Sequence record: CP124586.1
Strand: one strand, 5' to 3'
DNA from: a plasmid
Length of the DNA: 9,675 nucleotides
Shown here: positions 1,771-7,072 of the stretch, in pieces
Layout of the letters: each line of letters starts with the position of its first letter
How positions within the stretch are numbered: the stretch's first letter is position 1
Program-made: the position numbers and the translations under genes
The notes under the pieces: model-generated
Seen by the model: only the letters and a program-made list of their open reading frames with translations
Told to the model about the DNA's origin: nothing
Databases searched by the model: none

Positions 1771-1824
1771 AAAAAAATAGCAAATCAAAATGGAAAACTT
1801 TCCATTTTGATTTGCTTATTTTTG
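1771..1824. terminator. Bidirectional rho-independent terminator. The stem is 18 bp perfect (AGCAAATCAAAATGGAAA / TTTCCATTTTGATTTGCT) with a 2-nt loop, an A7 run on the 5' side and TATTTTTG on the 3' side.
   Basis: Perfect 18-bp stem flanked by an A-run and a T-run. It lies downstream of the minus-strand toxin/immunity operon. Confidence 0.75.
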
Positions 1825-1877
1825 AGTTGAATTATTTCATAGCATAAAAGATTCTATTAAATCTAGTCTGGATTTGT

Positions 1878-1913
1878 GACATCATCAAAATACTTAAGTA
1901 TTTTGATGATGTC
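1878..1913. repeat. 36-bp perfect palindrome GACATCATCAAAATACTT|AAGTATTTTGATGATGTC with no spacer and no adjacent U-tract. Candidate protein-binding or recombination site, or a cruciform.
   Basis: Exact 18+18 bp reverse-complement symmetry read from the sequence. The lack of a T-run argues against a simple terminator. Confidence 0.6.
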
Positions 1914-1961
1914 TAACGGCTAGTATGTTCTTTTTCATCAGTATAAACCACTTCTGTGTAA

Positions 1962-2458
1962 TTAAATAAAATTATTTTCTTCTAAACATTCCAAATAAAA
2001 TTGATAATCTAAATTATTTATATTAGTGTCTAAATTCTTAGGAGGAATATAACAAAATAAATGACTAACTAATTTTTGTGCAGGACCATAAACTTTATAA
2101 TTTGAGACATTTTGTCCATCATTAGATTCTAAAACAATAGATATACCTTTTCCAGCATTATGTTTCGCGATTAATGTGTCGTAATCAAAATTAGACGACA
2201 TTTCAGAAGTATAATCTTCATCATCAATAGCAAATGAATCTACTATTTTATTTAAAATATTATGATTGTCTATGTGGAATAGTTTATAAATATTTTTTCG
2301 TTAACTTCATCATCATTAGTGTAATCTTCTATATCAATTGAATATAAAGGAATTTCAAAAGCTTTATATTTATCCATTAAAATTTTTTCTATATTCTTTT
2401 TATCGTTAGATAATTTAGCGATCTTTTTGTATTTACTGTTCAATTCTTTATAATCCAT
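1962..2458 (-). pseudogene. Acidic immunity-like protein gene split by a frameshift in an A6/T6 homopolymer (+strand 2293-2298). The two ORFs (62 aa at 2270-2458 and 79 aa at 1962-2201) are contiguous. The second frame stays open back to 2300 and overlaps the end of the first.
   Basis: A strong RBS (AAGGAGA, 6 nt spacing) sits before the ATG at 2458. The frame of the 79-aa ORF is open upstream to 2300 without a start codon and overlaps the C-terminus of the 62-aa ORF by about 10 codons. Joined by a -1 or +1 shift in the A6 tract they give an approximately 160-aa D/E-rich protein. It lies 13 nt downstream of a basic toxin-like ORF. Confidence 0.5.
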
Positions 2459-2475
2459 CTAAATTCTCCTTTTAA

Positions 2476-3108
2476 TTACTGAGCTTTACCATAAAAAGAA
2501 TGCATTTTTGGGGTGCGTTTATAAGGATGATAATGAAAATATTTACCTTTCCTATTTTGATCTATTTCATGGATTGGTAAACCATTTTTATTTGCTCCTC
2601 TAGCTACTTCTTTAGCTTGATTCTTAGATACTGACCAGACATCTTTCTTTGATTTTGCACGCTTAATAGCATTTGTTCTAGACAAACCACTTCCAAGATA
2701 TAGTTTATAATCCTTTAACACAGCTCTATAGTGGTTATATTTTCTCTTTGGTGACTTCATAATAGAAGCGATTGATTTTGCTGCAGCCACCATTCTTTGT
2801 CCTTCTACTACAATAAAATAAGCAGCTGTGACTGATAATATTATTTCAACACCAGATGCAACTAAGATTGGTATTGCAGGAGCAACATTATTATGAACAC
2901 TAGCTGTTTGTACTATAGTCGAATCTTTGGTCTGTGTATTTGTTAAGTTTGCATATGTATTATCATTCGAATCAGCGATAACATCAGCATCAAATGTTTG
3001 AACTTTATTATCTACGAGACTTTTAACATCAAAATCTCCTTTTACTATATCATAATCAAAATGTGCAATAGCACCATTTGACTCTGTTATGGAATTTTTA
3101 AGGTAACT
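2476..3108 (-). CDS. Start-less C-terminal fragment of a larger protein. It has a D/T/Q-rich segment, one hydrophobic helix (VAPAIPILVASGVEIILSVTAAYFIVV) and a very basic 100-aa C-terminal domain (K/R-rich, with a ...GKYFHYHPYKRTPKMH... motif). The first ATG is at 2793, which would give a 105-aa product. Candidate orphan toxin C-terminal module.
   Basis: Manual translation shows the frame open from the stop at 3109-3111 down to 2476, with no ATG, GTG or TTG before the codon at 2791-2793. That codon has a plausible AAGGA RBS. The basic ORF is followed tightly by an acidic ORF with a strong RBS, the typical toxin-immunity arrangement. The integrase stop codon lies only 30 bp upstream of the open frame. 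Confidence 0.45.
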   Translation of the reverse strand, partial: SYLKNSITESNGAIAHFDYDIVKGDFDVKSLVDNKVQTFDADVIADSNDNTYANLTNTQTKDSTIVQTASVHNNVAPAIPILVASGVEIILSVTAAYFIVVEGQRMVAAAKSIASIMKSPKRKYNHYRAVLKDYKLYLGSGLSRTNAIKRAKSKKDVWSVSKNQAKEVARGANKNGLPIHEIDQNRKGKYFHYHPYKRTPKMHSFYGKAQ

Positions 3109-3117
3109 TTAAGGTTT
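3097..3117. repeat. Tandem TTTAAGGTAAC / TTTAAGGTTTG repeat at the junction between the recombinase gene's 3' end and the truncated toxin-like ORF. It carries the 10-mer TTTAAGGTTT that recurs at 3841, 3881 (inverted) and 4381 (inverted).
   Basis: Exact motif matches read from the sequence. Four copies of a GC-containing 9-10-mer within 1.3 kb of AT-rich DNA is far above chance. Confidence 0.55.
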
Positions 3118-3140
3118 GCAAATTTAATTAAAGATTATTT

Positions 3141-3710
3141 TTATACCTTATATAAATTTTCCATGGTATTACTGATAGATTCGTTCATCATATCCTGGTT
3201 AATTCCAATGTATTTCAGTGTTACATACTGAGAAGAATGATTAAATAGATTCATCAACAAAGCAATATCCTTCGTTTTCTTGTAGTAGTGGTAACCAAAG
3301 GTCTTACGCATCGAATGTGTTCCGATTTCACTTAAACCGATTGATTTAGCTGAATGATTCAGGATTCTATAAGCCTGTACACGACTGATGGGTTTACTTT
3401 TGCCCTCAGAATCGAGTTTATTGCTTTTAAACAGATAATCTTCATCCTCCAGGAACTGAATATAACGATCGATATCCTCCTTTAGATGATAAAGGGGGAT
3501 TTGTTTTTGTTTACGGGTTTTCTGCTCTCTTAATTTTATTATATAATCTTTAATATCTTTTTTCTTCAGTCCCAACATATCGCTCACTCTCAGGCCACAG
3601 TTAATTCCGAGATTAAACAGAAAAACGTCGCGTTCCGATCCATAGTAAGCGAGCGCCTCTTTCATCTCCTGTATCTTTTTCACGTCTCGAATCGGTTCTA
3701 CGCTGTTCAT
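3141..3710 (-). CDS. Small tyrosine site-specific recombinase, about 189 aa, consisting of the catalytic domain only (FimB/FimE-size).
   Basis: The catalytic signature is present: GLRVSD (box I Arg), HSMRKTFGYH (H-x-x-R) and NHSSQYVTLKYIG (His/Tyr nucleophile region). An AGGAG RBS lies 9 nt upstream of the ATG at 3708-3710; the GTG at 3719 is an alternative start. No N-terminal core-binding domain is encoded, because a stop occurs at 3753 and non-coding repeats lie upstream. Confidence 0.85.
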   Translation of the reverse strand: MNSVEPIRDVKKIQEMKEALAYYGSERDVFLFNLGINCGLRVSDMLGLKKKDIKDYIIKLREQKTRKQKQIPLYHLKEDIDRYIQFLEDEDYLFKSNKLDSEGKSKPISRVQAYRILNHSAKSIGLSEIGTHSMRKTFGYHYYKKTKDIALLMNLFNHSSQYVTLKYIGINQDMMNESISNTMENLYKV

Positions 3711-3783
3711 CCAAATCACTCCTATATGATACGTATAATGTACGTATTGATATCACTATGATACATTATTTCAGGCATAAAAA

Positions 3784-3810: not shown

Positions 3811-3838
3811 ATGTAACATAATTCCTATTGTGTTACAT
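3811..3838. repeat. Lox-like palindromic site A: ATGTAACATAA-TTCCTAT-TGTGTTACAT (11-7-10).
   Basis: Shares the 13-mer ATGTAACATAATT with site B at 4248-4277. Has the inverted-arm architecture typical of tyrosine-recombinase core sites. Confidence 0.55.
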
Positions 3839-3895
3839 TATTTAAGGTTTAAATATTGAAAAAAACATTTTACTATATTTAAACCTTAAATAATG
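3836..3895. repeat. Perfect 21-bp inverted repeat CATTATTTAAGGTTTAAATAT ... ATATTTAAACCTTAAATAATG separated by 18 bp. The arms contain the TTTAAGGTTT motif and are flanked outside by ATGTAA(C)A-type half-sites.
   Basis: Exact reverse-complement match over 21 bp. Located between the recombinase gene and the promoter of the small ORF. Confidence 0.7.
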
Positions 3896-3920
3896 TAAAT
3901 AATATAAAAGTAATTTCTAT

Positions 3921-4277: not shown

Positions 4278-4642
4278 AATTTTTAAAGAGACGCACTATT
4301 CAATTAAAAGTATAATAATAGAATTCTAATTGATTATTATAGCTGTAGACTAAATAGACGAATGAAGCGAATGATTGTACAACCTTAAATTTTTAAAAAT
4401 TCAGTAATAAATAGAATTATTACGGTATACTGAAAAAATAAATTATAGAGGTGATAAAATATAAATATAATGAAACATTATACTAATTACTTTAATTTTA
4501 TCTAAAGAAATATCCATTATTTAAAAATAAAGTAGTGTCATGGAAGAAAGTGAGATTTCAATGGCTAAGAAAAAAGAAAGGAATAGTGAAGTAATCTATT
4601 CAACATCGAAGGAAATTGTCATCAATATCGCGAGGTGAAAGT

Positions 4643-4858
4643 ATGACCTATAAATTTTATAAGATTTTGACTAGTCTAATTATTATTAGCTTTTTATTTA
4701 TCTTTCATTATTATTTAGCAAGTACAATGCATGAAGGAGTGGATAGACCTCTATGGATTTATTTTTTAAATCCAATAATTGCTATCATTCTGTATATTAT
4801 TTTTACAACTTTAGGTGAAAAAATTTATAAGAAGGAAGATGATAACCGTGACAAATAA
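4643..4858 (+). CDS. Small two-transmembrane-helix membrane protein (about 71 aa). Probable start is the ATG at 4643 with a GAGGTGA RBS; the ORF-track TTG at 4616 is less likely.
   Basis: Hydrophobic helices LTSLIIISFLFIFHYYL and IIAIILYIIFTTL. A strong SD lies 5 nt upstream of the ATG at 4643. Overlaps the start of the downstream secreted-protein gene by about 10-20 nt. Confidence 0.55.
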   Translation: MTYKFYKILTSLIIISFLFIFHYYLASTMHEGVDRPLWIYFLNPIIAIILYIIFTTLGEKIYKKEDDNRDK

Positions 4859-5531
4859 GACTAATTTATTAATTACTACCACAGTAGCAGTTTCTTTATT
4901 AACTTCTACTTTTATATCCCCATTAAAAGCAAATGCTGAAGCATAACAATCTGTAAAAAGTCAAAATTTTTCTGTTGATAATATAACATATACAAACGAT
5001 AAGATTATTATGGAAGATGGTTCAGAAGTGAAATACGGCACTAATTATAATATAGTAACTGATGAAAAGAAAAATGATACTTATAAATTGGTATTAGATT
5101 CAGCTAATAAAAGAATTGTAGTAACAAATTTGAAGAATGGTATTGTTTCATATAAGAAATTAACTACTGAAGTGGTTATAGAAGAGCCTTCTCAATTACG
5201 AAAAGATGATATTGAAATTGACGGACGCTTAAGCTCAAGTACGGATGAAAAGAAAATTTTATCTCGAGCAGCAGCAGGGCCACCAGCAGGATCAGTAGAT
5301 GGTTATAAATATGTGAGAACCACAAAGCATTCTTTAGAAAATGATGTTAATAATACAACTTTATTAATAGGTTTAATGATAACAGGAGGAAATATAGCTG
5401 CAGGAACGACTGCAAAAGCAGCTGCAAAAGATTTATTAAAACCTATTGCAGCCTATATAATAGGCAGTAAATTACCGAAAGTCTATTGGAAAGAAAGATT
5501 ATACTCTAAAAGTAAAAGAATTGATAATTAA
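4839..5531 (+). pseudogene. Secreted protein gene interrupted by an in-frame TAA (4944-4946) directly after a Sec-type signal peptide (M-ITVTNKTNLLITTTVAVSLLTSTFISPLKANA|EA*). The same frame continues into the 173-aa ORF at 5010-5531, whose C-terminal region is Gly/Ala-rich and hydrophobic (LLIGLMITGGNIAAGTTAKAAAKDLLKPIAAYIIG).
   Basis: Manual translation: the ATG at 4839 or GTG at 4848 (with a GGAAG SD) opens frame 0 and encodes a canonical n-h-c signal peptide ending in AXA. A TAA at 4944 follows. The frame is identical to that of the annotated ORF at 5010, whose own ATG lacks an SD. Confidence 0.45.
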
Positions 5532-5571
5532 AATACAGAATACATCAGTATGTTTTCTTCTGTATTTTTTA
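5532..5571 (+). terminator. Rho-independent terminator: stem AATACAGAA / TTCTGTATT enclosing an inner hairpin, then T5.
   Basis: Directly follows the stop at 5529-5531. Also serves the 3' end of the convergent HTH gene region. Confidence 0.6.
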
Positions 5572-5661
5572 TTATAATAAATACATTGATGAAAATTTTT
5601 TTGATATTTCCAATTGGTGTTTCAATTCCAATATCTTCACTCCTATAATCCTATATAAAAA

Positions 5662-6817: not shown

Positions 6818-6910
6818 TTACGACTTACGTTGATCTAACCAGTGAGAAAACAACGCAAGGACCACACCGACAATAATCGGCGCAACTATATTTACAAGGA
6901 TATAGTCCAT
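6818..6910 (-). CDS. fst: Fst/Ldr-family type I toxin peptide, 30 aa: MDYILVNIVAPIIVGVVLALFSHWLDQRKS.
   Basis: Found by manual reverse-complement translation; it is absent from the ORF track. Strong match to pAD1 Fst (MKDLMSLVIAPIFVGLVLEMISRVLDEEDDSRK). GGAGGTGA SD 5 nt upstream. The SD sits inside a GGAGGUGAUCUCC hairpin, followed by a second 8-bp 5'-UTR hairpin (CUUCCAUA...UAUGGAAG). A candidate -10 (TATAAT, minus strand, +strand coordinates 6965-6970) is present. Confidence 0.8.
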   Translation of the reverse strand: MDYILVNIVAPIIVGVVLALFSHWLDQRKS

Positions 6911-7072
6911 GGAGATCACCTCCTTCCATAAGATCTCGCCTATGGAAGTAAAGACGGCTTACTCATTATATCGAATTACGATGATTTCTTCTAGGTGGCT
7001 TACCTTATTCTTTTTATCACGTAAAAATGAGTGGCATAATAAGGGTAACGATAAACATCAGGAGGATATGTC

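Follow-up and report, generated by a model that had tools for sequence, protein, structure and literature searches.

The DNA analysed here (hereafter the window: record CP124586.1, 9,675 nucleotides) is a mobilizable plasmid of ~9.7 kb, of a family that occurs in Macrococcus and Macrococcoides. We examined two neighbouring genes on its minus strand, an open frame that has no start codon and encodes a toxin-like fragment and, behind it, a split gene for an acidic protein, both close to the gene of a small tyrosine recombinase. Positions 1962-3088 are, with good confidence, the decayed remnant of an S8-PTS/ABP operon (abpP-abpT-abpI), carried in the cargo slot of a small mobilizable plasmid of Macrococcus type. 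The features of the locus are the following.

3141-3719, minus strand: small tyrosine recombinase gene, 192 aa (Pfam Phage_integrase, E 6.6e-21).
3089-3140: junction spacer from the recombinase stop codon to the truncation point, the source of the opening 7 codons of the start-less frame (3108-3088).
3097-3115, plus strand: tandem TTTAAGGT-N3-TTTAAGGT within the junction spacer (copies at 3097-3104 and 3108-3115).
2887-3088, minus strand: putative remnant of the acidic BetaH beta-sheet of the toxin AbpT, aligning to residues ~121-190 of the full-length relative P0004.
2794-2886, minus strand: putative central hydrophobic helix of BetaH, at the hydropathy maximum and corresponding to helix 199-231 in the P0004 model.
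2476-2793, minus strand: putative cationic C-terminal toxin domain, 105 aa, pI 10.4, for which S8-VOC1 is the best fit.
1962-2458, minus strand: abpI-type immunity gene, 165 aa when intact, pI 4.7, no signal peptide; frameshifted here, and a conserved downstream partner.

On the minus strand, 210 codons run without a stop from 3108 to a TAA at 2476-2478; the first ATG, GTG or TTG of this frame is found at 2793, from which an open reading frame (ORF) lister accepting these three start codons calls an ORF of 105 aa. The initial annotation, made from the sequence letters, had described such a frame without a start before 2793, lying near the recombinase stop codon at a tandem repeat; the ORF listing confirms this, the distance between the end of the recombinase gene and the open frame being 32 nt. 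The product has three parts: an acidic stretch with a pI of 4.35, a hydrophobic helix (its highest-scoring 19-residue hydropathy windows begin at residues 75-83, and the maximum covers open-frame residues 75-101), and the 105-aa domain with a pI of 10.4, a charge of ~+20 and 25 lysines plus arginines.

Alignments to six intact or nearly intact loci all run out at exactly 3088 (99.9% identity with L003/L004, 84% with L015/L016, 75-77% with L005/L006), and the truncation point of abpT is 3088/3089. A tblastn search of the whole window with a 323-aa homologue showed that only residues 121-323 are encoded, the first 120 being absent, which supports the earlier proposal of a 5'-truncated toxin gene followed by a cognate immunity-like gene. 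The fragment, beginning at residue 121 of this homologue, has no signal peptide, and its BetaH remnant is likewise without the N-terminal linker and approximately the first two of the seven strands. Since abpT has neither start codon nor signal peptide, the exported toxin cannot be made. No S8 protease (abpP) is encoded anywhere in the window according to tblastn. DNA searches among plasmids and genome contigs returned no source for the 52-nt junction, and a search of 1900-3200 against plasmids gave no match.

Two other accounts of the 5' end were rejected. A start codon hidden by a frameshift (AAAGGAG-N6-ATG, ~3030) fails because the intact loci have the same sequence and their frame reads through it from upstream. 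A simple deletion from an L003-like plasmid fails because the L003 recombinase is only 87% identical and the 3' flank differs. The abpT gene of L003 and L004 is without its first four codons only, start codon included, and these loci are an intermediate state of abpT loss. They belong to a plasmid variant (L003 1-5023, Logan ERR15373395, and L004) whose abpT and abpI are 99.9% identical to those of the window; the flanking genes are one for a trypsin-like (S1) protease and three unknown ones, with no S8 protease gene.

The toxin gene is separated from abpI by a spacer of 17 nt (2459-2475), given earlier as 13 nt, which contains an AAAGGAG ribosome-binding site. The acidic gene had been presented as strongly translated; it is instead frameshifted, and is split into ORFs of 62 aa (2458-2270) and 79 aa (2201-1962). 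These rejoin to a protein of 165 aa with a pI of 4.7, and the split acidic gene is therefore real. The frameshift is a 1-nt deletion that turns an A7 run into A6 at 2293-2298, the sole difference from the intact L003/L004 copies in 1206 nt, while a Logan contig (L024, SRR24415345) matches the window at every one of 1435 nt, the A6 frameshift included. Related loci all carry a gene for 165-185 aa directly downstream, 15-34 nt past the toxin gene, and five aligned abpI copies from Macrococcus and Bacillaceae are 41-71% identical to the reconstructed window protein. The AbpI partner has no significant match in Pfam, NCBIfam, PADLOC or PDB sequences, and the profile searches that had been proposed for both proteins gave none for the toxin domain either in Pfam, NCBIfam and PADLOC.

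Full-length homologues matching 2476-3108, by which the initial annotation had hoped to identify the parent toxin, do exist. A protein search returned relatives of 263-323 aa, with 88-100% identity across the part that the window retains, as well as Bacillaceae relatives at 43-55%. The full-length relatives measure 282-323 aa, have 106-120 extra N-terminal residues, and begin with signal peptides in P0002, P0004-P0006 and P0008-P0011. In Macrococcus (L015), Virgibacillus (L022), Oceanobacillus (L021) and further Bacillaceae loci (L007, L010, L012-L014) the toxin gene is immediately preceded by a Peptidase_S8 gene, giving the gene order S8 protease - toxin - partner; the Virgibacillus protease has a lipoprotein-type signal sequence. 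The related-locus search of genome contigs returned two loci only. NCBIfam NF038340 (SAR2788 family putative toxin) matches the N-terminal region of 11 of the 12 relatives (best E 2.3e-17), and the window fragment weakly (E 0.001, 18.9 bits, below the cut-off of 50). In a full-length model of P0004, which is of low confidence (pLDDT 49.6), seven strands (103-182) are followed by a long helix at 199-231.

S8-PTS was defined by an S8 protease gene, a signal-peptide toxin with an acidic N-terminal domain, and a cytoplasmic immunity gene (Li, Tan & Zhang 2022, PMC9424270); its BetaH domain has ~120 aa, is acidic, and forms a seven-stranded sheet around a C-terminal helix (PMC9424270). The system was renamed ABP, with the components AbpP, AbpT and AbpI (review PMC13460014). 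The order of S8 protease, signal-peptide toxin and partner in the relatives points to S8-PTS/ABP as the parent system, and the parent toxin appears to be its ~300-aa Sec-exported BetaH toxin AbpT. Sec signal peptides and an upstream S8 protease speak against the parent first supposed, of LXG/EsaD type or from a contact-dependent inhibition (CDI) system. In particular, an LXG parent exported by a type VII secretion system was rejected, the full-length parents of 282-323 aa starting with Sec signal peptides, and no LXG domain is among the Pfam families listed for the relatives (all 17 for 12 relatives, and the best 25 of 141 for 117). The earlier layout of an acidic segment, a helix and a basic domain holds, and the helix, which had been called transmembrane, corresponds instead to the BetaH central helix. 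At the Pseudogracilibacillus-type loci (L011-L014, ~1-2014) the ABP operon has, ~2-3 kb away and as a separate gene on the opposite strand, an LXG toxin gene followed by two small genes; there, two different toxin systems stand side by side.

The full-length relatives resemble S8-PTS/ABP in their Sec signal peptide, their acidic seven strands with a central helix, their very cationic C-terminal domain, the S8 protease gene just upstream, the acidic cytoplasmic immunity gene just downstream, and their occurrence in Bacillales. In the window itself the immunity gene is found immediately downstream of the toxin gene (165 aa, acidic, no signal peptide, 17 nt away, frameshifted), and the toxin fragment is strongly cationic, with a pI of 10.4 for the domain versus 4.35 for the retained N-terminal part. 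The window copy differs in the absence of abpP, in the loss of the promoter-proximal 120 codons of abpT (start codon, signal peptide and first part of BetaH) and in the frameshift of abpI. Moreover, the cassette is plasmid-borne and recurs as a truncated form that retains immunity.

Protease cleavage inside BetaH is known to release the central helix with the cationic toxin domain, and this fragment is antibacterial in a membrane-potential-dependent manner (Colautti et al. 2025, PMC12582261; Mwangi et al. 2025, bioRxiv 10.1101/2025.07.24.666436); helix plus toxin domain is the active fragment in characterised ABP toxins (PMC12582261, PMC13460014). In the intact system as known from the literature, AbpT is exported by Sec and cut within its acidic BetaH by the co-secreted S8 protease AbpP, and the freed helix and cationic toxin domain enter other Gram-positive cells, cytoplasmic AbpI protecting the producer.

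A search over every cluster representative found the toxin domain in 127 clusters of 54-397 aa (most 250-400 aa), at the extreme C-terminus in nearly all of them. Its AlphaFold2 model, based on 117 sequences (pLDDT 94.1), shows an N-terminal helix and then an alpha/beta core. The top matches in structure comparison are members of the VOC superfamily, including 3E5D and 4QB5, which Li et al. also name, as well as the CdiA-VOC toxin 5T86, with scores below usual significance. Over the 117 sequences H87, H89 and H98 are conserved at 98-99%, H21 at 67% (Tyr at 28%) and E76 at 88%. The class S8-VOC1 was described as a VOC-type fold (beta-alpha-beta-beta-beta core) with an N-terminal extension and four conserved histidines, paired with a ferredoxin-like immunity family (PMC9424270). 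H21, H87, H89 and H98 would be these four histidines; the domain is also C-terminal to BetaH, small and of alpha/beta type with an N-terminal extension, and it has weak glyoxalase-type VOC similarity. It therefore best fits S8-VOC1, and we assign it provisionally to this class by its published description, rather than its sequences, as a His-rich and putatively metal-binding toxin domain. The UniRef name of P0008 refers to Ntox24 ('Bacterial toxin 24'); no Pfam family matches the window domain, and Ntox24 is absent from the families listed for the relatives (again all 17 for 12, and the best 25 of 141 for 117). PDB sequence searches gave nothing significant, the N-terminal region matching 8bgm_B 'Toxin' weakly (E 0.0094).

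The domain departs from S8-VOC1 in being found on an RHS orphan fragment as well. Contig L023 (54-2714, ENA ERZ4239670) holds a classical RHS orphan array in which two successive fragments share a '...YYLQSRYYDPSICRFINADIPE' tip. The second of them, P0128, combines an RHS tip, a hydrophobic helix and an S8-VOC1-like domain, and an unrelated gene for 96 aa follows 17 nt later. The 96-aa protein, a candidate alternative immunity protein, was rejected as an AbpI relative (hhalign probability 0.2). The occurrence of helix and domain on an RHS orphan supports their being a true polymorphic-toxin cassette, in keeping with the kind of domain first proposed. The window resembles CDI/Rhs orphans in that a start-less 3' toxin fragment is kept with an immunity gene, P0128 being a true RHS orphan. 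Classical orphans, however, lie downstream of a full-length cdiA or rhs gene with which they share a stretch of homology, whereas the plasmid has no full-length abpT, and the window contains no full-length toxin gene. The apparent parent is also different, a ~300-aa Sec-exported protein.

More than 80% of the window is covered by four records at 90-94% identity. The plasmid backbone encodes a helix-turn-helix-type Rep, the small tyrosine recombinase, a DUF536 protein, an Fst toxin, a NikA-like protein and a MOBP relaxase. On the Rep side, homology to six sister-plasmid backbones breaks off at 1796-1838, on the recombinase side at 3149-3184; because it ends on both sides, ~1824-3148 is taken as a cargo slot. 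The Rep-side edge of the slot and the backbone contribute three further features.

1779-1816: Rep-side slot edge, bidirectional terminator-like hairpin with a 17-bp stem (terminator scan).
1878-1913: Rep-side slot edge, perfect palindrome of 18+18 nt (36 nt; inverted-repeat scan).
6818-6919, minus strand: small ORF of an Fst-family type I toxin (MDYILVNIVAPIIVGVVLALFSHWLDQRKS), in the backbone; the sister-plasmid copies are annotated Fst.

The short-read contigs L003, L004 and L024 (Logan) all break at 1884, inside the 36-nt palindrome. In sister plasmids the slot holds a lactococcin-972 locus, an ABC transporter with a YxeA-family gene, cadD/arsR, or capA with MFS and GNAT genes. The recombinase gene belongs to the plasmid backbone, outside the toxin system, as unrelated cargo adjoins it in L001, L002 and L017-L020. 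In S. aureus plasmids a 90%-identical recombinase abuts a class II bacteriocin cluster. Competition cargo recurs in the slot downstream of the recombinase (L017 1-3223, L018 7645-10867, L020 7991-11590, and S. aureus L031 386-2322): a lactococcin-972 bacteriocin with DUF1430/YxeA/ABC genes, ABC/YxeA genes alone, or, in S. aureus, Blp-type class II bacteriocins with a PedC/BrcD isomerase.

The truncated cassette is not confined to the window. Gene calling finds the exact 105-aa ORF on 21 contigs or more, and the six loci examined (L025-L030) all have the recombinase gene 348 nt upstream of it and an intact 165-aa abpI 17 nt downstream. From 3200 to 1962 these loci are 99.92% identical to the window, the A run being the sole difference and the junction spacer 3089-3140 being unchanged, with flanks at 93-97.5%. 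The block of perfect identity extends to 1707 or 1799 in the direction of Rep and to 3263 or 3347 in that of the recombinase (first mismatch 3264 against L026, L027, L029 and L030, and 3348 against L025), and so takes in the last ~120-200 nt of the recombinase gene. Block ends that vary and fall inside backbone sequence indicate homologous recombination rather than capture by the recombinase. These data fit a single old truncation event, after which the cassette would have been passed between diverged plasmids by homologous recombination in the conserved flanking backbone.

The octamer TTTAAGGT has nevertheless to be considered in this context, as a site-specific recombinase might act at such repeats to capture or exchange toxin/immunity cassettes, in the manner of integrons or of the immunity islands of Bacteroidales, the truncation being a scar of that process. 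It occurs 7 times in the window versus 0.6 expected, and none of 200 shuffles reached 7. The break at 3088/3089 is 8 nt from the tandem, an inverted pair lies inside a 31-nt inverted repeat upstream of the recombinase gene (3833-3898), and there is a further copy at 4382-4389. An 11-bp-spaced TTTAAGGT-AAN-TTTAAGGT tandem is found in sister plasmids in two unrelated flanking contexts, L002 and L018 (7474; 6832) and L020 (7123). Furthermore, cargo starts 6-11 nt upstream of the recombinase stop codon in L017-L020, homology ends 27-41 nt upstream of it in L001 and L002, and competition genes are frequent in the slot. Against capture, the identical block ends at differing backbone positions and includes the recombinase 3' end, as expected from homologous exchange; no TTTAAGGT is present at the recombinase-cargo junctions of the sister plasmids; there is a single immunity gene and no array; and the parent toxin is of ABP type, neither LXG nor CDI. 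The octamer, which is present in one copy or two at one site, probably serves as a binding site for a protein, which may be the recombinase but equally a partition or replication protein. We consider site-specific capture very unlikely. The initial annotation had placed the loss of the 5' part at the recombinase junction; the loss is real, with its break at 3088/3089, while the variable block ends in the backbone do not fit capture by the recombinase. It had further compared the locus to the recombinase-associated acquired interbacterial defence islands of Bacteroidales, reportedly described by Ross et al. in 2019. The likeness is that a mobile element carries an immunity gene, with no functional toxin, beside a tyrosine recombinase gene. 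The window differs in having one gene rather than an array, a recombinase that is a general backbone gene of its plasmid family, exchange boundaries of homologous recombination, and a broken immunity gene. With unrelated cargo beside the backbone recombinase in sister plasmids (lactococcin-972, cadD, capA/MFS), there is no evidence that it constitutes such an island.

The two genes might also form a working addiction module of toxin-antitoxin type, in which the internal ATG at 2793 would start a cytoplasmic 105-aa toxin domain that AbpI neutralises, thereby stabilising the plasmid. Indeed, AAGGA stands 6-7 nt before this ATG, gene callers report the toxin domain as the 105-aa ORF from it on the contigs counted above, with an intact partner at the six loci examined, the terminator scan found no terminator between the recombinase gene and the cassette, and toxin-antitoxin systems are known to reuse domains of polymorphic toxins (PMC3482391). 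However, the methionine at 2793 is an internal residue conserved in full-length Macrococcus AbpT, the identical copies provide no evidence of selection on the ORF, and the window and L024 exist despite a frameshifted abpI, which is hard to square with an expressed active toxin. A toxin-antitoxin role is disfavoured by these carriers of a broken abpI, and we regard it as highly improbable. The frameshift, for its part, could be a homopolymer sequencing or assembly error, in which case the plasmid would be an ordinary carrier of an immunity-only cassette with truncated abpT and intact abpI. The change is a lone A in an A6/A7 run, it is the sole difference from six or more other loci, and abpI is intact in the other carriers examined. 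The independent Logan assembly L024, however, has A6 as well. The backbone genes are free of other frameshifts, and another gene has an inactivating change: a signal-peptide protein gene (4815-5531, plus strand) is split by an in-frame TAA at 4944-4946, where its L017 counterpart (4786-5604, 272 aa, 99% identical) has CAA (Gln). This TAA would be a second inactivating mutation on the plasmid and suggests real decay. An error at the A run is accordingly unlikely in our judgement. Unless the A6 call is such an error, the window copy is most likely functionless through the 1-nt homopolymer deletion in abpI, whereas in carriers with an intact abpI the truncated cassette likely confers immunity only, protecting against the toxin of neighbours.

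Several points weigh against this interpretation of the locus as a decayed ABP operon. The A6/A7 difference could still be a homopolymer error, and L024 might come from the same isolate as the window. The assignment of BetaH in this subfamily relies on the low-confidence model and on a sub-threshold NCBIfam match of the window fragment, and that of S8-VOC1 on the published description of the class, not on the sequences of Li et al. Both the toxicity of S8-VOC1 and its neutralisation by AbpI are unproven, in the literature as well. Finally, the truncated abpT copies are all identical, so that selection on abpI or on the remnant is not measurable by dN/dS.

The system itself is known, and the modestly new element is a spreading, plasmid-borne, immunity-only ABP cassette. 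A term search of the ABP papers (PMC9424270, PMC12582261, PMC13460014, bioRxiv 10.1101/2025.07.24.666436), with uneven coverage across them, found no mention of such a plasmid-borne truncated or immunity-only state. We tentatively suggest, as a reading rather less likely than not, that the cassette of truncated abpT and intact abpI is a selected immunity-only defence against diffusible S8-VOC1 ABP toxins, sweeping mobilizable plasmids of Macrococcus and Staphylococcaceae. The retained 3' end of abpT would then provide homology for toxin/immunity allele swaps with resident ABP loci, and the window would be a carrier that has just lost abpI. If this were true, the cassette would be a Gram-positive, plasmid-borne counterpart of acquired interbacterial defence.

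Our work places an unannotated pair of 'hypothetical' genes of Macrococcus plasmids in the recently characterised ABP/S8-PTS toxin family, and supplies the putative toxin class S8-VOC1 with a structural model of high confidence and a set of conserved His and Glu residues. In annotation, the start-less ORF should be recorded as an abpT pseudogene and the split acidic ORFs as an abpI pseudogene. The findings also suggest that, as ABP toxin genes decay, the matching immunity genes persist and travel on mobilizable plasmids; if confirmed, this would point to animal- and food-associated relatives of staphylococci being selected to resist diffusible ABP toxins.

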